Positions 1 to 11,943 of a DNA stretch of 64,000 bases are shown here, piece after piece. The position numbers and the translations under genes were made by a program. Location of the stretch: the NCBI GenBank assembly GCA_016193315.1, contig JACPSJ010000005.1, positions 68 through 64,067 of the forward strand. Direction: 5' to 3'. The notes beneath the pieces are model-generated. The model was given only the letters and a program-made list of their open reading frames with translations. It had not been told where the DNA came from and made no database searches. Positions within the stretch are counted from its first letter, which is position 1; each line of letters opens with the position of its first letter. This DNA is from Candidatus Kerfeldbacteria bacterium (GTDB lineage: Bacteria > Patescibacteriota > Patescibacteriia > SBBC01 > CAIJZX01).

Positions 1-42
1 ATCCGTGAATTTCTCGTTTCGCTCATCACCCGGATCTCGGTT

Positions 43-324
43 TTGTTCCTCGAGGGGTGGGTTTTCAGCGTGCTATGGTCTTGGTTTGTGGTACCAACGA
101 TTGGTCTCAAGGAGATCAGCGTACTGGGCGGGACAGGATTGATGATTGTCATCAAACTGATCCGCGCCGTCTCTGTGGGATTCAAGCTCCGTGACTATGG
201 TTACCTCGACATGAACGTGATGGAGTATTGGGAGGAGTATCGAAAGAATTTTGCTGCCATTTCCGTCGCCCTGCGTCCCTTCGAGATCCTTCTGGTGGGT
301 TGGGTTGTCCATCTGTTCATGTAG
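43..324 (+). CDS. hypothetical small hydrophobic protein (may extend beyond window start)
   Basis: 93-aa ORF with hydrophobic segments; followed by hairpin terminator at 370-414. Confidence 0.35.
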   Translation: MFLEGWVFSVLWSWFVVPTIGLKEISVLGGTGLMIVIKLIRAVSVGFKLRDYGYLDMNVMEYWEEYRKNFAAISVALRPFEILLVGWVVHLFM

Positions 325-369
325 CGTGTGAGCGCTTGGGGTCGGATTGATCTTTCATCGCGATCGCAA

Positions 370-414
370 CCCCCGCAAGAACCTCTGTGTTCCTTCCGGG
401 GGTTTCTTGTTTTT
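370..414 (+). terminator. rho-independent terminator
   Basis: CCCCCG(370-375)...CGGGGG(397-402) 6-bp stem followed by TTTCTTGTTTTT. Confidence 0.45.
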
Positions 415-454
415 AAAGAAAACCAAACCCGATTTCCGGAGTCTCATATCCGCT

Positions 455-461
455 GTTAGAC
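455..461 (-). repeat. attC remnant (3' core only, GTTAGAC on + strand)
   Basis: cgctGTTAGAC matches 3' ends of complete sites; reverse-complementary to GTCTAAC at 485-491. Confidence 0.4.
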
Positions 462-484
462 GATGCGAAGCAAAGCGGAGTTTC

Positions 485-572
485 GTCTAACGTTTGCGCG
501 TATGCGATGTTGCGCGGGTGTATACTATCGCGAAGCGGACACCCGCGCAATTCCGTATACGCGCTGTTATCG
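485..572 (-). repeat. attC-like site 1 (88 bp)
   Basis: + strand GTCTAAC-GTTTGCGCGTATGCG...inner 10-bp palindrome GCGCGGGTGT/ACACCCGCGC...CGTATACGCGCT-GTTATCG; on - strand ends in GTTAGAC (GTTRRRY). Confidence 0.7.
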
Positions 573-709
573 GATGTTTTGCTCGCAATCATAATAAATG
601 GGCCCTTTTGGATTCGTTTTTTATTGACATACAGCGCTTCATTTGATAACGTCGGTTTGCCTGAAAATAGTGCAGGCTTTGTACGTTCCCAATCGGGAGG
701 GCGCAGAGT

Positions 710-1252
710 ATGAATCTCCGGATGGTTTTTGGGATGTTGCTCGTCGTGTTGTATGGATGCACTCATGCAAAGGAGGTCAAGGAGATGAACGACGCGGTCG
801 TCACTACGTTGGCCCTCCGGACCGACAGTTCGGATATCATGAGAATGGGCCCTGATGCTTTTGCGCTTGATGTGAGAGCGAGGGAGTGGCGCGATGTGCA
901 TCTGAAGGGAAGCGAGTTCGCAGTACTGCCACTCCAGGAGAGTTTCTACCAGCCGCGTCGTACCGACAAGCCCTATGCTGGCTCCCGGCATTACCTTCTC
1001 TATCGCCTTCGGGCTGGCGAGACGATTCGGGGCGTCGTCGAACGATATCGTTCGCTCGCTGGCGACGGAGTTGATGGTGATGACGGCGTGTCCATCCTCG
1101 GTGAGGCAGAACGGCTTCATCATTTGCACCATGACCGGCGGGACGCGCAGGAGGGCGATTTCTGTCCTTTGATCTTGCCGCGTCTCACACACGACGTCTG
1201 CGCTGGCGTGGTTCACTGCCAGCTTCATGGAATGACCGTCGTCACATTCTAG
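710..1252 (+). CDS. cassette ORF: putative lipoprotein (opposite orientation to array)
   Basis: N-terminal signal MNLRMVFGMLLVVLYGC (lipobox-like), GGAGGG RBS 8 nt upstream; lies between attC sites 1 and 2. Confidence 0.45.
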   Translation: MNLRMVFGMLLVVLYGCTHAKEVKEMNDAVVTTLALRTDSSDIMRMGPDAFALDVRAREWRDVHLKGSEFAVLPLQESFYQPRRTDKPYAGSRHYLLYRLRAGETIRGVVERYRSLAGDGVDGDDGVSILGEAERLHHLHHDRRDAQEGDFCPLILPRLTHDVCAGVVHCQLHGMTVVTF

Positions 1253-1357
1253 CAGCATCGATTGCGACGATGTAGTTGTCCCCCGGGGTCAGAAATGGCC
1301 TCGGGGTTTCTTATTAAACTTCCAAAAGGGCTCCCAAATATTTGCGAGCAAAATTTC

Positions 1358-1509
1358 CGATAACGTTTGCGCGTATCTGTTGTTTGCTGGCTGTATGCTA
1401 TCGCGCCTGCCCGCCGAAGTAAAACGAAGGTGGGAAGCGGCACAGCCAGCAAATAACCGCGGAGGCTCACCCGGTAGGGGGAGCCGGAGCCAGATACGCG
1501 CTGTTAGCT
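1358..1509 (-). repeat. attC-like site 2 (152 bp)
   Basis: CGATAAC-GTTTGCGCGTATCTG...inner palindrome GCTGGCTGT/ACAGCCAGC...CAGATACGCGCT-GTTAGCT; 5' 7-mer complements 3' 7-mer of site 1. Confidence 0.7.
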
Positions 1510-1678
1510 GATGTATTCCTTTTCTTTTCTTCTCTGCCAAGAGAAGGCGGGGAAAAAATCTTTCAAATTTCCTTCAACTCTCTTTACGCCTTACTGTCAA
1601 CTTAAACCCTGAAAAAGAAAACGACCCGTCCTGTAAATCTGGGCGGGTCGTCTGCGAAAGTGCCAGGGAGCTCCCACG

Positions 1679-1951
1679 CTACTTCTGACGGTCTAAGCGC
1701 CCCACTGTAAGCATTGCCTTCTGGGTAATCTTGGGGCCCAAGTCATACCTAGCGACCATCTCCTTGAGCTCAGCAGCAACCCTCCGTGGAGCATTGTTGG
1801 AATAATCCCCGTATTCTATTTCTTCCAACATTCCAATGAGCTCGATGATGAAAACTTCTTCCTTGATCTTGGCGTCCATGTTGGCCACGTATCGCCGGAA
1901 ATGACGCTCTAGGTGGGACAACAGGACGTGATGTGCTGCCCGACCAGACAT
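1679..1951 (-). CDS. cassette ORF, hypothetical (90 aa), second gene of a two-gene cassette
   Basis: ORF between attC sites 2 and 3, 27 bp downstream of 1978-2343 ORF with no attC between them. Confidence 0.5.
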   Translation of the reverse strand: MSGRAAHHVLLSHLERHFRRYVANMDAKIKEEVFIIELIGMLEEIEYGDYSNNAPRRVAAELKEMVARYDLGPKITQKAMLTVGRLDRQK

Positions 1952-1977
1952 TGCTCCCCCATTTCTTCGGCACAGAG

Positions 1978-2343
1978 TTATTTCTTCTCCACGTTCCTCC
2001 TTGCTCGTATTTCCTGAAGAGCCATTCTCGCCTCTTTATGAAGCTCGGCCGTCAAAGCAAGAATTCGGGACAGACGCTCTTCATGTACATCGCCGGCCTG
2101 CCCAGACGGCGCCTTGTCAACTTGCGCCTTGAGGATAGCCACGGCTCTTTTGACCGTGTATCGTTGTCGTTCACTGAGCTGGTCCGCGATAAGCCACCGA
2201 TAAAGGGTTTGTCTGCAGAACGTCCCAAACCCCGGGTATACGCGCAGGACGTTAGCAGCAAGCGTCATTGATCCATAGGCACTGACAGCTTCTTTCAGCT
2301 CGCTTTGTGCATCCTGATTCTCACCAGCAGGTTCGGACTTCAT
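1978..2343 (-). CDS. cassette ORF, hypothetical (121 aa), first gene of a two-gene cassette
   Basis: ORF co-oriented with array; no recognisable family. Confidence 0.5.
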   Translation of the reverse strand: MKSEPAGENQDAQSELKEAVSAYGSMTLAANVLRVYPGFGTFCRQTLYRWLIADQLSERQRYTVKRAVAILKAQVDKAPSGQAGDVHEERLSRILALTAELHKEARMALQEIRARRNVEKK

Positions 2344-2550
2344 GACCCCTCCTTCACGAGTTCATGCCAAACTGAGTGGACGATCTAGAATTCCGTATGA
2401 GCATTGGGCAATATTTTCAAAAAGCAGTTTTGTTTGATCGTGTATCTAAACAAAGTATTGGACATGTGTCAATCCTGTCAGGCAAGAAGATAGAAATTTG
2501 AAAGATTTTTACCCGCTCCGGCGATAGCCGGAAAAGAAAAGGAATATGTC

Positions 2551-2642
2551 AGCTAACGTTTGCGCGTAGGCGAAGTTTGACGGTGATATAATCGTACCAT
2601 CACCGGCAAACTTAGGCGATAGCCGCCTACGCGCTGTTGTGC
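2551..2642 (-). repeat. attC-like site 3 (92 bp; 3' core tandemly duplicated 2646-2652)
   Basis: AGCTAAC-GTTTGCGCGTAGGCG...inner palindrome CGGTGATA/TATCACCG...CGCCTACGCGCT-GTTGTGC then GTTTGAG. Confidence 0.7.
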
Positions 2643-2858
2643 GCTGTTTGAGTTCGAGTATGCAATAATCGCTGCCTCAGGCCTTGACTTTTTTCAAGCC
2701 ACATGCTATTATTGCCCGTTCTTTAAAATGTTTGAGAAAAGCGTTTTGTTCATCAACGTGGTGTACGAAATGCTTTTCTCAAAGCGGGAAAAGCGTGGAT
2801 TGTTGCCGGAATGGCAACGCCCTGTCTCGTCCGGGGAATTCTCGTAAGGAGAGTAGCC

Positions 2859-3185
2859 ATGGACTTCGTGATCCCGAACAAGCAGATGTTCATGCGGCAT
2901 TATGTCGAGTTGGTCGGCAAAGACTTCCTCGGTTGCGGTCGCATGCTTCACATCACGTTTCGCCAGAAGCCGTGTGCCCACAGCTTCCGCTTCGTGGCCC
3001 TGTTCCACGTCAAGGGTCTCAAAGCCAAGCAGGTTCGGGGCACCTTCTACTGGAGCTATTTCAACGAAACCGAACAGTACTTCGACGTACGAGTTAGTGA
3101 CGGTACGCACGAAGGAGAAGTCTTCTACCACGTGCTGAACGAGGAGATCCTGACGACCGATCCGAGAATCAAGGCCATTGCCTGA
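2859..3185 (+). CDS. cassette ORF, hypothetical (~108 aa), opposite orientation
   Basis: Protein-like composition (MDFVIPNKQMFMRHYVELVGKDF...); the overlapping - strand ORF 2709-3203 is R/G-rich antisense-like. Confidence 0.35.
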   Translation: MDFVIPNKQMFMRHYVELVGKDFLGCGRMLHITFRQKPCAHSFRFVALFHVKGLKAKQVRGTFYWSYFNETEQYFDVRVSDGTHEGEVFYHVLNEEILTTDPRIKAIA

Positions 3186-3271
3186 AGTCCGCACCTTCCC
3201 CAATATGGGGCCGAGGGTTTCTGAAAGGAGCCCTCGGTTTTCGTTTATTTAAAGACTCGAACTCAAATGGC

Positions 3272-3334
3272 GCACAACGTTTCGCGCGTCATACGCGGCG
3301 GAGCGAAGCGGAGTTGCGTATACGCGCTGTTGTA
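3272..3334 (-). repeat. attC-like site 4 (63 bp)
   Basis: GCACAAC-GTTTCGCGCGTCATACGCG...GCGTATACGCGCT-GTTGTAC; 5' 7-mer complements 3' 7-mer of site 3. Confidence 0.65.
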
Positions 3335-3386
3335 CGATGATTTGCCTCCCGACCAATAAAGATAAGCGCGGTTTCACCGTTGCTAA

Positions 3387-3878
3387 TTACTCGCCAAGTA
3401 GTTCCTCAGCAACTTCAAGGGCTATGTCATATTGAGATTTACCAGCCTTCTTCCGCTCGTATTCGTATGCTTCTGACAGAACTTCGTCTTGTGCCTTGTC
3501 TATCAACACAGCTTCTTTCGAGACTTCGGGCGTAACCTGTGTTCTAAGCTCAGCTAATTTGTAAAACTTATTGTAAAGTTTTCTAATGACATCTGAGCCT
3601 TCGTAAGAAAAGCTTTCAACGTCAGAAGTGTTTCCATCACCAAGTAATAAACCATCAATAAATCCGTACCCACGAGAGGTAAGGTATACCGAGTGTCCGT
3701 TGAGAGTCCCTTCAATTCGGGTATCCGGCCCATATGAACTTGCTTCAAGCTCTATATCACCCGTGACATTGAGTTCAGATTTCAATTTCTCGTATAATTG
3801 CAGTTTTTCACGTAACTCTGACAGCTCATGCTGTGATGGCGTCATTATTTCTTCTGGTGATGGTCGATCTTTTTCCAT
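3387..3878 (-). CDS. cassette ORF, hypothetical (163 aa), AT-rich
   Basis: ORF between attC sites 4 and 5; compositionally AT-rich relative to host. Confidence 0.55.
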   Translation of the reverse strand: MEKDRPSPEEIMTPSQHELSELREKLQLYEKLKSELNVTGDIELEASSYGPDTRIEGTLNGHSVYLTSRGYGFIDGLLLGDGNTSDVESFSYEGSDVIRKLYNKFYKLAELRTQVTPEVSKEAVLIDKAQDEVLSEAYEYERKKAGKSQYDIALEVAEELLGE

Positions 3879-3945
3879 TGAGATATAGATAGTGTTCTAG
3901 TCTAGAGAAACCGCGCTTATCTTACAACGAGGGAGGCAAATTTTC

Positions 3946-4039
3946 GTACAACGTTTCGGGCTAGCCGAAGTTTGGCTGTGGTACACTTGCGCACCAGCGC
4001 CCACCACAGCCAAATTTGGGTGAGCGAGCGCCGCTTTCA
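3946..4039 (-). repeat. attC-like site 5 (divergent variant)
   Basis: GTACAAC-GTTTCGGGCTAGCCG, inner 13-bp palindrome AAGTTTGGCTGTGG/CCACAGCCAAATTT, degenerate far end (GCTTTCA instead of GTTNNNN) overlapping the stop codon of the 4037-4624 ORF. Confidence 0.5.
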
Positions 4040-4624
4040 AATGATATTCCAAAGTCTGGTTGTCGGGTCGAGTTTATATTTTTGTACGTTGATGTGAACA
4101 GGTTTTCCTAAGAATGTAAAACCATATCTCACATCTAATATTATTCCATTGTCCGTAAGCTCTTTTTCTAAGTCGATTTCATTATCCTTTAAGGATTCTT
4201 TTGTGTTGAAAGGGTAAACACGGGAATCTCTTGCGGCCATGTACATTGCTACCTTGGAAAGGTTTTTGAGAATAATAGTTCTTTCTTTAAGTACCACAAT
4301 GAAAGTAATGGTTAAATCTTCGAAAGCATTATCGGTAGTGTTCATGTAGTGAATTTCGGTCGTGGGATTACCTTTCATAACACGAATTAACAAGGCTGGC
4401 TTCTTGCTAGCAACATAAGCCTTGTTAGTATGCCAAAAGCTAGCTATTACAAATGAAGCGGAAATAAATGCAGCAATTAATCCCCAAAGAGAAATCCAGT
4501 GGCCGATTTTTTCACTGGCTGTAATATTCCCTAAATGAGATTGCAGCCAAATATAATACGACAACCAGACACCCAGAAGAAGGAGAGAAATTATTATTGT
4601 TGATAATACATACTTTGTCTTCAT
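4037..4624 (-). CDS. cassette ORF, N-terminally membrane-anchored hypothetical protein (195 aa), AT-rich
   Basis: N-terminal TM helices (LSTIIISLLLLGVWLSYYIWL, WGLIAAFISASFVIASFW); second gene of two-gene cassette. Confidence 0.55.
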   Translation of the reverse strand: MKTKYVLSTIIISLLLLGVWLSYYIWLQSHLGNITASEKIGHWISLWGLIAAFISASFVIASFWHTNKAYVASKKPALLIRVMKGNPTTEIHYMNTTDNAFEDLTITFIVVLKERTIILKNLSKVAMYMAARDSRVYPFNTKESLKDNEIDLEKELTDNGIILDVRYGFTFLGKPVHINVQKYKLDPTTRLWNII

Positions 4625-4666
4625 GGCGCTCGCGAACCGGCTAGCCCGTGTTAGGCGGAGTAAATT

Positions 4667-4873
4667 TTAGTCGGGTCTACTTAAATCTTCTAAGTATTTT
4701 TCAGCATTCTTCTGGTTGTTGAATGTTTGTACGGTATAACCTATTCCATCTCGGTCAATTTGGTTACGTTTTCGTTGAGTTTTGTATACCACAAAAGAGT
4801 CTTTGCTGACTTTTCTAACGTTAAACCAATAACCCTCTTTTTCTATATATTTCGATGATATTTCGGTAACCAT
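4667..4873 (-). CDS. cassette ORF, hypothetical (68 aa), AT-rich
   Basis: ORF co-oriented, 42 bp upstream of 4037-4624 with no attC between. Confidence 0.45.
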   Translation of the reverse strand: MVTEISSKYIEKEGYWFNVRKVSKDSFVVYKTQRKRNQIDRDGIGYTVQTFNNQKNAEKYLEDLSRPD

Positions 4874-4898
4874 AATAGGAATGACTAAAATTTATTTC

Positions 4899-4983
4899 GC
4901 CTAACGTTTGCGCGTCATACGCCCGTCATCCGAAGCTTTAGCGTAGGATGATGGCGTATACGCGCTGATATATGATGTTGGCA
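4899..4983 (-). repeat. attC-like site 6 (first attC next to attI side)
   Basis: GCCTAAC-GTTTGCGCGTCATACGCC...GGCGTATACGCGCT then GATATATGAT-GTTGGCA; on - strand ends with canonical GTTAGGC. Confidence 0.65.
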
Positions 4984-4995
4984 CATGATTGTTTG

Positions 4996-5427
4996 TCACT
5001 TGCTTTTCATTATCCACCAACTCTTATCGTCTCCAATGTAAAAGGGGTCTTGTGTTTTTCTATAACGCTTAAATCCAAGTTTTTCGTGCCCTTTCAAAGA
5101 GGCGATATTTTTGGACTCAATGTAAGCAATGATAGTCAAACCTTGAGCATCTTCTTTGAGTCTCTCGTATAGTTTGGTGCCTATTCCTGTCCGTCGATAT
5201 TTTGGATGTACAAACCAATCAGCGATATATACCTCGTCATTTTTAGTTTTCATGGCTATTATTGCACCAATAATTTCATCTTGATCCTTAGCCAGAAAAA
5301 CATAGCCGAAAGAGACAAAAGAAGCTATGTCATAGGTGCCGGTCATGTAAGGTCCGCCCCAGACTTTTCGTTCGAACTCCCTGACTTTCTGACTCTCACT
5401 GGGCTTTGCTCTGGAAATTTTAATCAT
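4996..5427 (-). CDS. GNAT family N-acetyltransferase (first cassette)
   Basis: Acetyl-CoA binding motif region YRRTGIGTKLYERL; 143 aa; flanked by 11-bp inverted repeat CATGTGCCAA(C) at 4977-4987 and 5428-5438. Confidence 0.7.
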   Translation of the reverse strand: MIKISRAKPSESQKVREFERKVWGGPYMTGTYDIASFVSFGYVFLAKDQDEIIGAIIAMKTKNDEVYIADWFVHPKYRRTGIGTKLYERLKEDAQGLTIIAYIESKNIASLKGHEKLGFKRYRKTQDPFYIGDDKSWWIMKSK

Positions 5428-5522
5428 GTGCCAATTTCATATATCTCGTTATTATGCGAACCTGGGTGGGCAGATAGCCTCATTATTGCCTATTTTGTTA
5501 AATAATGCTATGAATAAAGCCG
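5428..5522 (-). promoter_or_regulatory. candidate attI / divergent promoter region between intI-like gene and first cassette
   Basis: AT-rich 95-bp spacer; aTTGGCAC at the cassette-1 junction mirrors GTTGGCAC at the far side of attC site 6; TTGCCT-17-TATGAA promoter-like on + strand. Confidence 0.3.
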
Positions 5523-6371
5523 GTGGCGAGAAAGGCCACCAATTTTATTATGACGTATATTCAATCACCGCTTGATCGGACCGAAACCGAGCTTCGGATC
5601 CGCAATTACAGCCCTCGAACTCGGCAGAGCTATGTGCACTGTCTGCGCGCATTCTTTTCGTTCGTCGGAGCGGACGTTGAGCGCTCGAACGAGGAACGCG
5701 TTCGGCAGTTCCTGCTTTCTTTGGAACAGCGCGGCGCTTCACCTCAGACGCGGAATATTCATTTGAGTGCCATCAAGTTTTACTATCGGTGTGTTGTCCG
5801 TTCCGGTGCGCTGATCGCTGTCCCGGCCGCTAAGAAATCGGCCGCCTTGCCAGCGGTTCTTTCCCGCGATGAGGTCCGCCGGATGCTGGACGTGACCGTC
5901 AACGAAAAACATCGCCTGCTGCTAGCGCTGGCATACGCCGCGGGACTTCGGGTGAGTGAGGTGGTGGCCTTGCGCGTCGGAGATATCGATCTGCCGGAAC
6001 TCACCGTGCACATCAAACGGGCAAAAGGACAGAAAGACCGGATCAGCATCATGCCGGAGACCTTGCGCGAAGAACTCTCGCGTCTCATGGCGGGAAAGGG
6101 GGGCGATGCGCCGGTGTTTGCTAGCGCGCGGGGCGGAGTGCTCACGACGCGTACCGCACAGAAAATCTTTGAGCACGCGCTTGCTAAAACCGGCATCAGA
6201 AAACCGGCCACCTTCCACAGCCTGCGCCACAGCTTTGCCACCCACCTGCTGGAAAACGGAACGGACGTGCGCTACGTGCAGGAACTGCTCGGGCACCAAA
6301 ACATCAGAACAACCCAGAGATACACCCGGGTCACAAATCCGATGCTCAAACACATCAAGAGCCCGCTGTAA
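5523..6371 (+). CDS. IntI-like tyrosine recombinase lacking the IntI-specific additional domain (282 aa)
   Basis: N-term RIRNYSPRTRQSYVHCLRAFFSFVG and KGQKDRISIMPETLREELSRL, C-term GIRKPATFHSLRHSFATHLLENGTDVRYVQELLGHQNIRTTQRYT (R-H-R-Y catalytic residues) closely resemble IntI1 blocks; ~40 aa shorter than IntI between patch-II lysine and box HxLRH. Confidence 0.8.
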   Translation: MARKATNFIMTYIQSPLDRTETELRIRNYSPRTRQSYVHCLRAFFSFVGADVERSNEERVRQFLLSLEQRGASPQTRNIHLSAIKFYYRCVVRSGALIAVPAAKKSAALPAVLSRDEVRRMLDVTVNEKHRLLLALAYAAGLRVSEVVALRVGDIDLPELTVHIKRAKGQKDRISIMPETLREELSRLMAGKGGDAPVFASARGGVLTTRTAQKIFEHALAKTGIRKPATFHSLRHSFATHLLENGTDVRYVQELLGHQNIRTTQRYTRVTNPMLKHIKSPL

Positions 6372-6551
6372 AACGTGGGGATGTTCCTGCCTGCCGCGCC
6401 TCGGATCGCCCGATAAAAAGTTTTGTTGGCGGTGGGAGTGAGATTCTCCGTCTCCGTTGCCGCTGGTAACTTCGGGCGGATCCGCCGCAGCAATATTTTC
6501 ATATTGCGGAGGCGGAGAACTCACGAGACCCTTTCGGATCTGCAGCTTTTT

Positions 6552-6579
6552 CCGGCGAAGCCGGATCCGGCTTCGCCGG
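6552..6579. repeat. perfect 28-bp palindrome CCGGCGAAGCCGGATCCGGCTTCGCCGG
   Basis: Seen in spacer between recombinase gene and tRNA-Ser; preceded by TTTTT. Confidence 0.4.
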
Positions 6580-6631
6580 GCGAGAGCGGCGCCTTTCCCG
6601 CCCCTTACTAATTTTCAGAAGGGCGGGCGGG

Positions 6632-6721
6632 ATCCCGCGCATGGCGGAGGGTGGAGGATTCGAACCTCCGAGAAGCTTGCGCCCCTACTGGTTTTCGAAA
6701 CCAGCGCATTCGACCACTCTG
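6632..6721 (-). tRNA. tRNA-Ser (anticodon CGA), class II with long variable arm, CCA encoded
   Basis: Acceptor GGAGGGU/ACCCUCC, D-stem GCA/UGC, anticodon loop UUCGAAA, T-arm GGAGGUUCGAAUCCUCC, discriminator G + CCA. Confidence 0.85.
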
Positions 6722-6840
6722 CCAACCCTCCGCCATGTGCGGTGACAACCACTCGGCCACTCCTCCGTCAGGGATTTTCCGATACCCGACAGGCTGGCCG
6801 ATTGTAGCCCGTTTGCTATCATACATCAAGTCGGAACACC

Positions 6841-7260
6841 ATGAAACTGCGCCGCGCCATCGTTATTTCCGTCGTCACCTACCTGACGACATTTGTCATT
6901 GGCGCGGCTGTGTCTTTCTTGATAAGTCATCCGGTAAGCGTTGACCAGCCACCTTCAGCCAATGCCGTCCTTGCCACCATGCTGGCCGCCATCGTCGCTG
7001 GTGGTTTTGGTGCCTGGTGGTATCTCCGCCCGGCCGAGATACCGGGCGGGGCAAAGGCCGGATTCTTGTTCGGGCTAGTAGCCACCGTCACCGCCTTCAT
7101 CCTCGACGGGCTGCTAGCGCTTGGACTACTGGTAAGTGGACGAGACCCAATGCCTTTATTGCGGGACTCATATACCCACTGGTTTTTCGGCATCATGATG
7201 GTTGTTGGCCTGGTCGTGACAACGCTTGTTGGCACCAGCAAGGTTCGGCATGGCTATTAG
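6841..7260 (+). CDS. hypothetical integral membrane protein (139 aa)
   Basis: Four predicted TM segments. Confidence 0.5.
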   Translation: MKLRRAIVISVVTYLTTFVIGAAVSFLISHPVSVDQPPSANAVLATMLAAIVAGGFGAWWYLRPAEIPGGAKAGFLFGLVATVTAFILDGLLALGLLVSGRDPMPLLRDSYTHWFFGIMMVVGLVVTTLVGTSKVRHGY

Positions 7261-7759
7261 AATCACCCAAACCTTCTACCCCAAAACCAGCGCCGCCTGG
7301 CGATCTTGGCTAAAGTACAATCACGCCAAGAAGAAAGAAATCTGGCTTGTACGATACAAAAAGCACACCGGTAAGCCAACTGTCGACTACCAAGATAGTG
7401 TCGATGAAGCGCTGTGCTTCGGTTGGATCGATGGGATGGAAAGAAGAATCGACGCTGAACGATACGCGACCAGATTCACCCCGCGGCAGCAGTTCAGTAG
7501 TTGGTCTGAGGGTAATATCCGGCGGTACAAGATGTTGGTTCGGAAGCGGCTGATGACCGCCGCCGGCCGAGAAGCGTTCAGGAACAAGTTCGAGGTACGG
7601 GCGCGAACGATGCTCCCCGGCGGACAAAAGTGGCATCGTTCTCATCCCTTCCCGTCCAACCCGACCATCAGTCAACGCATCGTCTGGCACCGTCAGCACG
7701 AAAAGTTTTGCGCCTGCCGGCCGGTGCCGAAAAGCTTATTGGAATACTTTCGGCTCTAA
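7250..7759 (+). CDS. YdeI/OmpD-associated family protein (DUF1905-like N-term)
   Basis: EIWLVRYKKHTGKPTVDYQDSVDEALCFGWIDG motif region typical of YdeI-like proteins. Confidence 0.5.
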   Translation: MAIRITQTFYPKTSAAWRSWLKYNHAKKKEIWLVRYKKHTGKPTVDYQDSVDEALCFGWIDGMERRIDAERYATRFTPRQQFSSWSEGNIRRYKMLVRKRLMTAAGREAFRNKFEVRARTMLPGGQKWHRSHPFPSNPTISQRIVWHRQHEKFCACRPVPKSLLEYFRL

Positions 7760-7939
7760 CTGGGTTCTACACGGTCCGTTCCTTCATCCGGGAAGAGTGG
7801 CCGGTAACAAAGGGGCGTCAGTCTATGGACCCTTGACGTTTTGTTATTGTCGTGCTAGACTCGGCCGTCAATGGTTTCCGCGTCACCGTTCACTCGGCTC
7901 ATACGCCGAAAGTGCTGCACCATACATTGGAGGCAAACA

Positions 7940-8194
7940 ATGGGTAAGCTGAAGCGTCTGACCTGTGAGCAGTTCCGGGGATTGGTGTCTTCGAACGTCA
8001 CGGGCGCCGGGATTTCGGAGGACGAAGTAGACCAGCTGGCCGAGCATGCAAACCATTGCGGTTGGTGTTGCACCTGGGTCGACACAGATCTGGGCGGACC
8101 TCCCGGCTATCTCGAGGAGGCTCAACGCCATCGGATCTTAAGTCTGGCGGAAGGCAAAGACCCGGACGACCGCTTCGACGACGAGGCCACGTGA
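7940..8194 (+). CDS. small Cys-rich protein with HxxxCxxC (zf-HC2/anti-sigma-like) motif
   Basis: HANHCGWCC; GGAGG RBS upstream of ATG 7940. Confidence 0.4.
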   Translation: MGKLKRLTCEQFRGLVSSNVTGAGISEDEVDQLAEHANHCGWCCTWVDTDLGGPPGYLEEAQRHRILSLAEGKDPDDRFDDEAT

Positions 8195-8238
8195 CCCAAA
8201 GTTCCAAGGGCGCCTGTCTACGAGGGGGGCGTTACGGC

Positions 8239-8604
8239 CTAGGGCAATCCGGGCCGTTTTCTATTCGACCGCTGTGCAATCGCCGCTCGACCAATCATTA
8301 ATCCGAAAAATCCAATCACTAGGTCACCGAAGACGTTGGCTGGTGTCTCCGGCGCAAACGCGAACCCGCCAACCGCTTGTTTCAGTGGAGCCACAAACTC
8401 ATGCGCCTGGACATCGAGATAGCGAAGAGTGATTTCCGCCAGTTCCCACAGCACTAACAAGCTAACGCCAATCATCCAGAATCGGCCTGCCTTGGGGTTC
8501 CAAATCACTACCAGCAATAATCCGATGAACAGGCCGCTGGCGGAGTGAATTCCCGACCACGGCCAGTCAAACACGGCTTCATTGACCTGGCCGAAAAGTT
8601 GCAT
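8239..8604 (-). CDS. hypothetical membrane protein
   Basis: Hydrophobic ORF; start at MQLFGQV assumed. Confidence 0.4.
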   Translation of the reverse strand: MQLFGQVNEAVFDWPWSGIHSASGLFIGLLLVVIWNPKAGRFWMIGVSLLVLWELAEITLRYLDVQAHEFVAPLKQAVGGFAFAPETPANVFGDLVIGFFGLMIGRAAIAQRSNRKRPGLP

Positions 8605-8688
8605 GGTAGAATGATAGCATACACTGCCGGCGCAAACCTCTATCATCAGTCATCAGCAGCCAAACCGTCCGTGGTATAATAATCTTCC

Positions 8689-9036
8689 ATGTCCCCCCTG
8701 AAATTAGTCGAGCAATCAATCTCGAAAGATGAACTCTTGGCGCTCGCCAAGGAGCGTTTTGGTGACATGGTCAAGGCCGTCGTTGACATTGAACGCGGGG
8801 TGATGGTTGTCGGCGGGGAACTTCACGCTGACGCCGAACAGCGGCTGCTTGAACACGGCTCGAACCAGACCGATCTTTGGGGCATCAATATCTATCCTGA
8901 AAAACCCCGGGCCGAGTGGATCGAGTTCGACTCGATGATCAACATCCGGCCCTCGCAGGGAAACCGATCCCGATCGGTGGAAGATGAGGGGATTCGAAGG
9001 CGAATCATTGGGATCGTGAATCGCCTGACTCCATGA
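8689..9036 (+). CDS. hypothetical protein (115 aa)
   Basis: ORF; 4-bp ATGA overlap with next ORF. Confidence 0.5.
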   Translation: MSPLKLVEQSISKDELLALAKERFGDMVKAVVDIERGVMVVGGELHADAEQRLLEHGSNQTDLWGINIYPEKPRAEWIEFDSMINIRPSQGNRSRSVEDEGIRRRIIGIVNRLTP

Positions 9037-9368
9037 CCGCCCGTCATACATCGCTGGCGGCCGGCCGGTGGCAAAGCATGACTCTCGCCGAACAACTCGG
9101 CAACGTCGGCAGCGAAGTCTACCGGGCTCGTCGATGGCAGACAAAAGACCGGGCATCGTTCCAAAACGCCTTTGAACGCATGCTGGAGTTGATGGACCTG
9201 ACGATTACCGACCCGCGTTGGCGCCGGCGTGGAGAGTTGTCCCGTGTCCGCGAGGTGCTGTGCGATTACTTTATGGGTGGAAACAGCTACCGGACCGAAC
9301 CAGATTCGTTGCAAGCCTATTTCGACCAGTTCGCGGTGGTAGCGAGAAAAATCAAGGCAGCGGCCTGA
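9033..9368 (+). CDS. hypothetical protein (111 aa)
   Basis: ORF translationally coupled to previous. Confidence 0.5.
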   Translation: MTARHTSLAAGRWQSMTLAEQLGNVGSEVYRARRWQTKDRASFQNAFERMLELMDLTITDPRWRRRGELSRVREVLCDYFMGGNSYRTEPDSLQAYFDQFAVVARKIKAAA

Positions 9369-9407
9369 GGGTCGCCTCGGTATCTCAGGAGCTCGAGTTT
9401 TGAACCT

Positions 9408-9713
9408 TTGTCTTTGGGACCAATCTTGACCAAAGTTGGTAGTTTGGTAGGCTACAGTAAAGTATTAACCTCGACCACTATGCCCGAAACACTTGCCCCC
9501 GAAGCGACGGAACGGGACGAACAACAAGCCTTGCTGGAAGCCCGCGTCGACAGCGCGCGCCGAGCCGTCGAACAAGCGAAAACTGAGCTGGCTGCTGCCG
9601 CCAGTGAACGAGAACGTACCATCTGGGAAAATCGCCTCGCCCAGCGCCAATCCGAACTCGATCAGCTGCAAAAAGACCGGGCCCCGATGGAGGGTGACTC
9701 GACGGACGAGTAA
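9408..9713 (+). CDS. hypothetical coiled-coil protein
   Basis: Ala/Glu/Arg-rich helical ORF; start uncertain. Confidence 0.35.
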   Translation: MSLGPILTKVGSLVGYSKVLTSTTMPETLAPEATERDEQQALLEARVDSARRAVEQAKTELAAAASERERTIWENRLAQRQSELDQLQKDRAPMEGDSTDE

Positions 9714-10302: not shown

Positions 10303-11943
10303 ATGATCCCCGCTCCCCCTCCACCGAACGCGTCTACTGCTGCCCCGCCCGCGACCAGCAGAGTTGATGGCTTTATCCGTCGCCACGAGTTTTGGTCTTG
10401 GCTGATTGTATTCCTGGCGATTGGCATCTACGGTACGCTCCTGTCGGTCCCAAAGAATATCCGGGAAATCGTCACCTTCGACTGGTTCTATGATCTTGCT
10501 TTCCACATCCTCGTTTGGCCGTCGGACGTCGTCTACGCTTTCGTCAACCAATGGGTCGACTGGCAGGAGAGGGTTGACGCTGGGCTACAAGTTGGGTTGG
10601 CCGCCCTGCTGTATCTCTACCGTCACCTAGAGCGGCGACTAGTGACAAAGCCAACGCCAGTCGTCCGTCGTCAACGGCTATGGCTGGCTGCCGGATCACT
10701 GTCAACTGTCTTGCTGCTAGCCATTATCTGGATCACCACGCCGTTCCCTAAAGATTTTTTGAAGATCTTCACCACTCCTATCCCAGCCCGTGTGATCAGT
10801 GAGACCCCAACGCCGCTCCCTACCCTTTACGTGGCCACCCGCCAAGGAGTATTCCGCGCCTCTGATGATGAAGCGGAGAAACGATATGGCACGCTCCAGC
10901 CATTCAGCCGGACCACGGACGTGATCAAGATCAATACCACCCAATCGGCAGTCTATCTCTACGCCAAACAGGGGGTCCAACGATTCGATCATGGTGGTCG
11001 GCTGAAGAGCGAGTGGAAGCGGACATCATCACCGACCTACCGCCTGCCGACCGCGGAGGAAACCCGAAACGGGGCGGCGGAATACGATGAATTGATGGCC
11101 GGCGTCTACGACCGCGGGAAACTTTACATCGCCGCCAACCGGTCGCTCATTATCCTGGACGAGCAGCTCCGCGAACTCGGTCACCTCAGCCCGCTCCAAA
11201 AGAATGAGCTTAACCAGTACAAAGCGATTGATGACGTTCTAGTCCATGACCAAACGGCTTTCCTGGTCGACGACATCGCTTATCCGCTGTTCGTTTTCTC
11301 GGTCGACATCAGCAACCCTCGGCAGCCACAGCTGCTGCACACCATCGGCGTCGGCGGCGTCTACGCTACCATCAGCAACCAATGGCTCGATCGAGCCAAC
11401 GAGGATTGGTGTTTCCAGCAGGAGACGAGCAGTGGCTACACCGGCAATTTCACTTCCGTCGCCTGCGTCCCGAAATCCCTCTACCGATCGCCTGGCTCGA
11501 CGAACCCCGACGGCTACGGACCAAACGACCCGGCCATCCGAACTATTGAACTCGGAGAAAGTAACCACGAAATCGAGCCCGAACTACGCACCGGCAAAGG
11601 ATTCACTATCTTGAAAGACCTGAACTGGACCGACGACTGGATGTTTATTGAACAAGCCAAAAGCTATGATGACCAAATTGTCGGTCTTGGTTCTGACTAT
11701 TCTGTCCAGGCGCAACAGTCCATTGGTACCAACCTCAGCAGCGGGTCAATAGTTTTCTACCGCTATCGTGATCACGTTTTCCTCTATGCCCTTGACACGC
11801 TCAATGTCCTCCGCGACAATGGCGAGGTGCTGGCCGGTGAACACTCGCAGACTATCCCCCAGGTTGAGGTTGATCGGACCGATGGATACCAAGGGAAGAT
11901 GAAGGTGCCGGCCTGGATAACATTCGCCGCTGATCCACGTTAG
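10303..11943 (+). CDS. large membrane-anchored hypothetical protein (546 aa)
   Basis: N-terminal TM helices then long extracytoplasmic domain. Confidence 0.6.
   Translation: MIPAPPPPNASTAAPPATSRVDGFIRRHEFWSWLIVFLAIGIYGTLLSVPKNIREIVTFDWFYDLAFHILVWPSDVVYAFVNQWVDWQERVDAGLQVGLAALLYLYRHLERRLVTKPTPVVRRQRLWLAAGSLSTVLLLAIIWITTPFPKDFLKIFTTPIPARVISETPTPLPTLYVATRQGVFRASDDEAEKRYGTLQPFSRTTDVIKINTTQSAVYLYAKQGVQRFDHGGRLKSEWKRTSSPTYRLPTAEETRNGAAEYDELMAGVYDRGKLYIAANRSLIILDEQLRELGHLSPLQKNELNQYKAIDDVLVHDQTAFLVDDIAYPLFVFSVDISNPRQPQLLHTIGVGGVYATISNQWLDRANEDWCFQQETSSGYTGNFTSVACVPKSLYRSPGSTNPDGYGPNDPAIRTIELGESNHEIEPELRTGKGFTILKDLNWTDDWMFIEQAKSYDDQIVGLGSDYSVQAQQSIGTNLSSGSIVFYRYRDHVFLYALDTLNVLRDNGEVLAGEHSQTIPQVEVDRTDGYQGKMKVPAWITFAADPR

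Follow-up and report, generated by a model that had tools for sequence, protein, structure and literature searches.

The DNA analysed here, a window of 64,000 nucleotides from contig JACPSJ010000005.1 of a Candidatus Kerfeldbacteria bacterium, carries near its left end a row of small genes separated by imperfect palindromes and, beside it, a divergent gene for a tyrosine recombinase. This locus is probably an integron-like gene-cassette platform of a bacterium of the Candidate Phyla Radiation (CPR). The palindromes share one anatomy, with covarying arms and an asymmetry between the two strands. They keep their position and orientation relative to the recombinase gene in other CPR loci, and cassettes are present or absent in related contigs at the predicted junction.

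Chained cassette ends and map of the array

Seven 7-mer links run along the + strand between positions 425 and 5445, with six complete imperfect palindromes and one partial. The original prediction, made from the letters of the window, held that the 3' 7-mer of each palindrome is the reverse complement of the 5' 7-mer of the next, and a check by script bore this out for every link that it had listed. The five perfect links given at that time are all real: GTTAGAC 455-461 with GTCTAAC 485-491, GTTATCG 566-572 with CGATAAC 1358-1364, GTTAGCT 1503-1509 with AGCTAAC 2551-2557, GTTGTGC 2636-2642 with GCACAAC 3272-3278, and GTTGTAC 3329-3335 with GTACAAC 3946-3952, the GTTGTAC having been placed one nucleotide off, at 3328-3334. 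The sixth link pairs GTTAGGC 4650-4656 with GCCTAAC 4899-4905. The seventh, GATATAT 4967-4973 with ATATATC 5439-5445, bounds a GNAT acetyltransferase cassette and marks the right end of the array. Since agreement of the four variable bases alone amounts to 1/256 per link, the chain is not attributable to chance. The 7-mers are strand-symmetric and therefore give no orientation of the array by themselves.

At every link an inverted repeat of 22-27 nt extends from GTT/AAC inward, with a constant 2-nt mismatch at positions 10-11. In the cassette 566-1364, 21 of the first 23 positions match, the mismatches falling at 10-11; the cassette 1503-2557, which holds two open reading frames (ORFs), has a 27-nt inverted repeat with 2 mismatches within terminal repeats of about 75 nt, and the ends of the GNAT cassette are GATATATGA..TTGGCACATGATT. 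Overall, the complementarity of cassette ends covers 22-75 nt. The heptamer AACGTTT occurs six times on the + strand of positions 1-5500, once in the remaining 58.5 kb of that strand, and four times on the entire - strand.

Other parts of the original prediction had to be revised. Its "remnant" palindrome at 4625-4656 is the 3' arm of a longer site, el5 (3946-4656), which encloses the ORF 4037-4624. The proposed RYYYAAC/GTTRRRY cores do not fit beyond the AAC/GTT triplet, and by eye only GTCTAAC and GCCTAAC match RYYYAAC. A cassette array built by site-specific crossover was retained with the crossover at the conserved AAC/GTT triplet, and without the GTTRRRY core. The features are as follows, with site scores from the covariance model R1 described below and fold energies computed for single-stranded DNA.

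1-461 (+): 3' part of an element with an ORF in its loop; holds ORF 43-324 (+), a terminator-like hairpin, and the 3' arm and core ...CTCATATCCGCT-GTTAGAC (425-461)
455-491 (+): ORF-less mini-cassette GTTAGAC-GATG...TTTC-GTCTAAC, read from the sequence and the link script
485-572 (+): site el1, attC-like hairpin; R1 64.9 bits, E=2e-14; fold -30.1 kcal/mol, z=-6.0
566-1364 (+): cassette with a 180-aa lipoprotein-like ORF, 710-1252 (+); own promoter-like and terminator-like signals by scan
1358-1509 (+): site el2; fold -42.4 kcal/mol, z=-5.2; homologous to L082 8714-8834
1503-2557 (-): cassette with two small ORFs, 1978-2343 and 1679-1951 (both -); repeat family GTTAGCT...TTCAAATTTC
2551-2642 (+): site el3; R1 64.6 bits; fold z=-6.3
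2636-3278 (+): cassette with a 124-aa ORF, 2811-3185 (+); TTGACT-17-TATTAT promoter and terminator
3272-3335 (+): site el4, 64 nt, extra C in the 5' arm; R1 31.4 bits, E=6e-5; fold no better than shuffles
3329-3952 (-): cassette with a 163-aa ORF, 3387-3878 (-), bounded by inverted repeats
3946-4656 (+): site el5, 711 nt; arms CGGGCTAGCC/GGCTAGCCCG around an inner hairpin and a 195-aa membrane-protein ORF, 4037-4624 (-)
4650-4905 (-): cassette with a 68-aa ORF, 4667-4873 (-); together with el5 the 953-bp unit missing in L085
4899-4973 (+): site el7, extra C in the 5' arm; 3' core GATATAT instead of GTT...; R1 38.5 bits; fold z=-4.5
4967-5445 (-): GNAT acetyltransferase cassette, first beside the recombinase; ORF 4996-5427; Pfam PF00583, E=1.5e-15
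5433-5465 (+): attI-like primary site TTTC-ATATATC|TCGTTATTATGCGAAC; motif conserved upstream of the recombinase gene in CPR loci
5487-5515 (+): recombinase promoter-like TTGCCT-17-TATGAA, read by eye and compared with TTGTAT-N17-TATAGT-type motifs of other loci
5520-5542 (+): hairpin before the recombinase gene, from the terminator/hairpin scan
5550-6371 (+): tyrosine recombinase, 273 aa, IntI/XerA-like, without the IntI insertion

Within the array all sites have the same orientation and lie 0.03-1.05 kb apart, in agreement with the usual definition of an integron, which asks for two or more attC sites of like orientation less than 4 kb apart, each an imperfect palindrome with R and L boxes and conserved AAC/GTT. 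The region of the array and recombinase (window 1-8000) has a G+C content of 50%, against 56-60% in 8001-64000. Because the stub at 425-461 is, by homology, the 3' arm of an ORF-containing element starting outside, the array extends to the left of the window: window 425-502 matches 7928-8010 of the related locus L082 by blastn, the 3' arm of the element at L082 7388-7965.

Predicted folding of the sites and variation in cassette content

Read on the + strand, a site consists of NNNNAAC, GTTT, an 11-nt arm (NNNN-TAT-NNG), a variable interior, the complementary arm, T and GTTNNNN. We aligned 19 sites from six genomes, found by an initial scan that demanded arm complementarity, and counted the pairs. 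Almost no variation was seen in the AAC/GTT triplets or in the GTTT/T spacer. The 11-bp arms covary, 8 of the 11 pairs being changed on both sides. Double changes filled 65 cells of the alignment, compared with 20.1 +/- 3.8 in shuffles, and 88.8% of the cells were paired against 30-49% when the partner columns were slid. The paired percentage is partly circular because the sites were chosen by the arm-complementarity scan; the diversity of compensated pairs and the later independent model hits are free of this circularity. An inner GTT/AAC helix beyond the arms was unsupported in the register tested and was removed from the model.

Folding as single-stranded DNA gave a far better result than shuffled controls in five of the six folded sites (el1, el2, el3, el7 and the 5' part of el5), with z from -3.6 to -6.3, and no gain in the short el4 (-16.0 kcal/mol, z=-1.15). 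Both strands were folded for four sites, and there the + strand was more stable than the - strand by 0.8-4.2 kcal/mol. A G.T pair stands beside the triplet in 18 of the 19 sites on the + strand only, and positions 10-11 of the repeats likewise give G.T or T.T pairs on that strand only. Canonical attC bottom strands are rich in G:T pairs and are cut between A and C of 5'-AAC-3' (PMC5027507). This likeness, together with the G.T asymmetry, makes the + strand the likely folded and recombined strand. For the ORFs that lie tightly packed on the - strand (those of the GNAT, 68-aa, 195-aa and 163-aa proteins and of the two-ORF cassette) it is the bottom strand. The extrahelical bases, a TTT bulge and an extra C in el4, el7 and the site at L082 9583, lie in the 5' arm of the better-folding strand, that is, in the same arm as AAC and not opposite AAC as the canonical rule places them (PMC5027507).

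The primary site beside the recombinase gene is shared with other loci. More than 20 CPR loci have the motif (A)TTTC-NNNNAAC-TCGTTNTTATGCGAAG at a distance of about 75-150 nt upstream of the gene, and in the window the site (NNNNAAC|TCGTTNTTATGCGAAG) lies about 100 nt before it. Its arm, TTATGCGAAG, is like the arm of the sites, with a spacing from AAC to TATGCG of 7 instead of 9 nt. In 12 loci the sequence left of the primary-site AAC has an inverted-repeat partner upstream, directly after the 3' arm of a site and T-GTT; therefore a cassette abuts the primary site in each of them. A Logan contig, L081, starts exactly at C5445. An exact search of the JGI metagenomes for the primary site of the window returned no match.

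The original prediction had proposed looking for presence and absence of cassettes at the predicted junctions, and one such case was found. In contig L085 (SRR12113385, another sample), ...GAGGCAAATTTTCGTACAAC is joined straight to GTTTGCGCGTCATACGCC..., that is, the end of the 163-aa cassette meets el7. This contig is without exactly window 3953-4905, the 953 bp made up of el5 with its 195-aa ORF and the 68-aa cassette, and the breakpoint falls inside AACGTTT. The sister-sample contigs L083 and L084, which have the same GNAT gene, keep the order of the window. Other sequence stands left of the AAC|GTTT of el1 in L089, and contig L086 consists of the cassette 1503-2557 alone (it spans 1499-2561). 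In L082, whose recombinase is 82% identical, the primary site is nearly unchanged, with a different set of seven sites and cassettes that includes HicAB. The repeat family GTTAGCT...TTCAAATTTC (about 75 nt) bounds unrelated cargo in three CPR genomes: 1 kb in the window (ends at 1503-1580 and 2480-2557), 0.55 and 0.76 kb in L082 (8158-8720 and 8828-9589), and 4 kb in L014 (342-4359).

Both variant junctions (L085 and L089) are at the 5' AAC of a + strand site, which fits a unit composed of an ORF body and its left-hand site, with the reading direction on the - strand leading away from the recombinase gene. That the cassettes are read on the - strand, away from the divergent tyrosine recombinase, had been proposed from the layout and agrees with these junctions. 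For the 953-bp unit, the expected junction of a circular cassette is GCCTAA|CGTTTCGGGCTAGCC. Discrete units exchanged at the AAC/GTT triplet and an attI-like site beside the recombinase gene, two further marks of integron membership, are found together at this locus.

If the palindromes were inert repeats between small genes, of the repetitive extragenic palindrome (REP) or bacterial interspersed mosaic element (BIME) type, or terminators, they would be expected in intergenic gaps, which they do occupy, and some of the hairpins score terminator-like. We give this reading hardly any credence, since cassette-specific inverted repeats chain the neighbours and the polymorphism is precise at AAC|GTTT. 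In addition, the cassette sets differ behind the same primary site in a close relative, the elements are confined to one strand and one locus, and no Rfam family matches them: at gathering and E-value thresholds only tRNA and chance sub-threshold matches were returned, and Rfam contains no attC family.

We fetched 80 genome loci and 80 metagenome loci encoding relatives of the recombinase and searched them with R1, the covariance model built from the 19 aligned sites. R1 gave 41 hits in the first set (1.1 Mb); 40 are on the recombinase-sense strand, and 39 of these are upstream of the gene, all in CPR loci. Eight CPR loci with hits in this set had no part in model building. The metagenome loci (0.49 Mb, none of them in the model) gave 28 hits, 23 on the sense strand, all upstream and in CPR-type loci. 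Together this makes 69 sites in 1.6 Mb, with 63 on the recombinase-sense strand and 62 of those 63 upstream of the gene; the six off-strand hits are five in L113 and a marginal one on the - strand of L028. Sites were detected in Kerfeld-, Peregrini-, Gracili-, Wolfe- and Saccharibacteria and in other lineages. No R1 hit was obtained in about 57 more distant metagenome loci, and among some 100 more distant loci overall there was a single marginal one. The chain and the terminal-repeat rule are valid in L014, L082 and L012; L023 and L017 follow them in part.

Two other ways of detecting sites were abandoned. A simple AAC...GTT palindrome scanner gave many false positives and overlooked bulged sites; it was superseded by a motif-anchored scan and then by R1. 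Strict detection by flank motifs, independent of the arms, yielded too few sites.

The array could also be a cluster of canonical attC sites lacking an integrase (CALIN), served by a true IntI that is distant or lies to the left, with the adjacent recombinase unrelated. Such clusters are common: 75 archaeal genomes carry 539 attC sites and 6 IntI genes (PMC9668308). The array does run past the left edge of the window, and under the canonical rule for unpaired bases the + strand would count as the top strand, with intI on the left. This reading is improbable, given that the array has the same position and orientation relative to the recombinase family in about 25 independent loci and that its end coincides exactly with a conserved site, some 100 nt away from the gene, which carries the arm motif of the sites. 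There is no second tyrosine recombinase within the 64-kb window, and in none of the 160 recovered loci (0/160) was the match long enough for the IntI insertion. The packing of the ORFs and both variant junctions also fit reading away from the recombinase gene.

The recombinase and its place among known systems

The recombinase (ORF 5550-6371) contains PF00589 and a SAM-like N-terminal domain and is 100% identical to a protein from a metagenome-assembled genome (MAG) of Candidatus Kerfeldbacteria. In the alignment with VchIntIA (2a3v), query residues 24-188 correspond to 13-180 and residues 211-282 to 246-317; about 43 residues are missing, and the gap places query residues 188-211 opposite VchIntIA 180-246, the IntI-specific insertion. 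An AlphaFold model (predicted local distance difference test score, pLDDT, 86) found VchIntIA on Vibrio cholerae repeat (VCR) DNA as its best PDB match (Foldseek E=5.5e-16), again with about 40 gap columns, and XerA as the next. The protein scored 199.9 bits, in two stretches, with the integron integrase model TIGR02249 (cut-off 265) and 143 bits with PRK15417 (cut-off 435). The best NCBIfam match was XerA_Arch at 209.6 bits (cut-off 220), and XerC and XerD gave 188 (335) and 180 (330). Over 18 family members, all 270-295 aa long, the integron-integrase and XerA models perform about equally (best E 2e-69 and 1e-68) and XerC/D do worse. R134, K159, H223, R226, H249 and Y258 are invariant alignment columns and, by position, candidate catalytic residues.

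Judged from its sequence, the recombinase is not a canonical IntI, as the IntI-specific additional domain (I2 helix, near patch III) is missing from it. The "classical integron" of the original prediction does not survive this result, with the alignment gap against VchIntIA and the sub-threshold TIGR02249 score. Among the simple tyrosine recombinases, the family matches the "Cand" subgroup, which was presumed to take the place of Xer in dimer resolution (Smyshlyaev et al. 2021, PMC8138268).

These properties bear on a further explanation, in which the recombinase is the chromosome-dimer resolvase of the cell, the upstream site is its dif, and the cassettes exploit this Xer/dif platform as integrative mobile elements exploiting Xer (IMEX) do, through either dif-like duplex sites or folded hairpins like that of CTX phage, and accumulate in tandem. 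In XerS/difSL and XerH/difH the gene and the site are adjacent. The recombinase is highly conserved over CPR, is classed with the Xer-related "Cand" subgroup and has XerA_Arch as its best NCBIfam match. In L009, L010, L007, L022 and L027 the TATGCGAA arm is followed by its own inverted copy, forming a dif-like palindrome; by reading, the 5' half of each site is quasi-palindromic, AAC-N17-GTT; and in three lineages a tRNA-Ser(cga) follows the gene closely, which points to a chromosomal neighbourhood that is stable. Nevertheless, we consider this explanation unlikely. Among the loci with 10 kb on each side, the two flanks agree in the sign of GC skew in L006, L009, L010, L012 and L025 and differ only in L020 and L036, although skew over 10 kb makes a weak test; and in a complete Wolfebacteria genome the locus, at about 118 kb of 984 kb, is at no skew switch. 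The recombinase falls below the curated cut-offs of XerA (209.6 vs 220), XerC and XerD. The G.T asymmetry, the arm covariation and the hairpin geometry favour a folded strand over duplex sites. This alternative overlaps with the integron-like platform and differs from it mainly in the housekeeping role and the duplex substrate.

In an integron-like platform, the 273-aa recombinase would act on the primary site NNNNAAC|TCGTTATTATGCGAAC (5433-5465) and on the hairpin sites that follow each cassette. The neighbouring recombinase as catalyst, folded single-stranded DNA as substrate and the exact point of cleavage are inferred. The folded + strand would present an R-box helix, AAC(G)/(T)GTT, lengthened by the terminal inverted repeats of the cassette, then the 3-nt TTT bulge and the 11-bp arm helix. 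Strand exchange would take place in the 5'-AAC-3' of the + strand, with the cut most likely between A and C. Because exchange would be at the + strand AAC, the mobile cassette would comprise the ORF body and the site to its left in window coordinates. The partner could be the duplex primary site or another site, and replication would presumably resolve the product, as it does for integrons and CTX phage. Cassettes would enter at the primary site and leave by recombination from site to site.

The locus has much in common with integrons, especially sedentary chromosomal ones. These have a divergent tyrosine recombinase with a primary site beside its gene, and an array of small ORFs, most of them promoterless, with an imperfect palindrome that contains conserved AAC/GTT triplets after each ORF. 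The last core of a site is complementary to the first core of the next, the crossover maps to the AAC triplet, and the bottom strand folds better, with G.T pairs. Cargo of toxin-antitoxin (TA) type, ORFans and polymorphic cassette content are also shared. Unlike in integrons, the recombinase here is without the IntI insertion (I2 helix region), and the cores agree with RYYYAAC/GTTRRRY in the triplet only. A GTTT/T bulge, constant and asymmetric, forms the central spacer, and the unpaired bases are on the AAC arm. Cassette-end complementarity of 22-75 nt, sites with an ORF in the loop and a host among the CPR (Patescibacteria) are further differences. The element behaves as an integron does, but two of the features that define integrons are absent from it, namely the IntI insertion and extrahelical bases opposite AAC.

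Members of the "Cand" subgroup and archaeal XerA have the same size (about 270 aa) and the same two domains, SAM-like N-terminal and catalytic, with no arm-binding domain; XerA_Arch is also the best NCBIfam model and XerA the second-best structural match. The members described here differ in standing beside cassette arrays, in scoring below the XerA cut-off, and in the absence of a terminus signal at the locus. With CTX phage and IMEX the likeness would be that an insertion-less Xer-type enzyme acts on single-stranded DNA folded into a hairpin, in which two inverted half-sites flank a bulged centre, and that integration into a duplex site gives tandem arrays. The units here are, in contrast, single small genes instead of phage genomes, the platform is beside the recombinase gene with no demonstrable dif, and excision appears possible, given the polymorphism. 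The pdif (plasmid dif) modules of Acinetobacter plasmids likewise consist of small genes set between Xer-type sites, and there, too, identical module ends enclose different cargo. However, pdif are 28-bp duplex XerC/XerD sites in alternating orientation on plasmids, whereas here hairpins of 64-152 nt (711 nt with the ORF) stand in one orientation on the chromosome beside a single recombinase.

Several points weigh against an integron-like platform run by the neighbouring enzyme. The insertion with the I2 helix is held to enable IntI recombination of folded single strands (PMC7790495, PMC9668308); eLife 2020 work ascribes this ability to the gain of the I2 helix. Integron finders demand the domain, as did the archaeal integron study (PMC9668308). 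The identity of 61-68% across CPR classes is unusually high. Because of this conservation and the classing as presumed Xer substitute, the recombinase could be a housekeeping enzyme that merely adjoins the array or serves it as well. In two of the seven cassettes the ORF is encoded by the other strand. The start of the recombinase gene is separated from the primary site by a hairpin, and no sigma-70-like match for a common cassette promoter (Pc) was found on the - strand of 5445-5700, although sigma-70 rules may not be those of CPR. The ends of the Logan contigs L081 and L086 are indirect evidence of mobility. ORFs within site loops are not accounted for by crossover at the AAC triplet.

The chances seem evenly divided that the integron-like platform represents a CPR-wide integron class, in which an IntI/XerA-like recombinase never gained, or lost, the I2-helix insertion and yet uses folded hairpins. 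No publication linking attC or integrons with CPR taxa was found, subscription-only journals being outside the search. Such a class would mean that hairpin-cassette capture needs no IntI-specific domain, and the lineage may either preserve the Xer-like state from which integrons arose or have invented the system independently. Should the neighbouring enzyme prove to be the catalyst, the Xer-to-IntI transition could be tested with a natural intermediate or alternative, and the CPR, with their small genomes and mostly uncultured members, would gain an unrecognised route of gene acquisition. Integron diversity would then be underestimated, because current software would label such arrays integrase-less at best. 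Arrays beside similarly short recombinases in Bacteroidota hint at a phenomenon reaching beyond the CPR.

Cargo and further observations

The cargo consists of the GNAT acetyltransferase, HicAB in L082, and otherwise mostly ORFans. With PADLOC and NCBIfam, the GNAT acetyltransferase was the only convincing assignment among the cassette ORFs, and a look-up of the 163-aa cassette protein returned no record. The leader of the 124-aa ORF, window 2714-2800 (+), contains a long hairpin, TTTGAGAAAAGC...GCTTTTCTCAAA, for which Rfam gives chance-level miRNA matches only. An empty hairpin similar to the mini-cassette adjoins the attI-like site in L009, L010, L013, L026 and L027.

About a dozen of the retrieved CPR contigs stop 80-600 nt upstream of the recombinase gene, as expected with a repeat array there, and arrays are therefore probably under-represented in MAGs. 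Contigs ending in this interval, from CPR MAGs and Logan assemblies, include L001, L002, L004, L005, L008, L013, L015, L021, L024, L026, L027, L081 and L092, among others.

Promoter-like elements of the TTGTAT-N17-TATAGT type (window 5487-5515, L005, L012, L014, L018 and L036) have TTATRCGAA in the spacer. The arm of the primary site has the same motif, a hint that the recombinase regulates its own gene.

A tRNA-Ser(cga) gene is directly downstream of the recombinase gene in the window, at 6642-6731 (-), in L012 at 10818-10907 and in L005 at 1421-1511. A genomic island at tRNA-Ser was considered and set aside, the tRNA being adjacent in only 3 of about 25 loci; we treat it as neighbourhood conservation and not as an attachment site.

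In the metagenome locus L113, which encodes a 41%-identical relative (recombinase 276-1064), five CPR-type sites at 2120-9426 (-) lie downstream of the gene in an inverted arrangement. Relatives from Bacteroidota (about 267 aa, 36-41% identical, with no insertion of IntI length) adjoin attC-like repeat arrays of the form ...CCTAACATTGTATATGACGG...CCGTT, at L028 12160-18745, L033 11382-15017 and L051 2098-11129; the array is downstream of the gene in L028 and L033, the two of these loci that include sequence on that side.

Sites with an ORF in the loop were seen at window 3946-4656 and 1-461, at L082 5611-6234 and 7388-7965, and at L009 7917-8487, with loop cargo of 195 aa, 93 aa, HicAB, 112 aa and 65 aa. 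Each loop ORF has the inner hairpin on one side and the 3' arm on the other, and an inner inverted repeat of its own encloses it.

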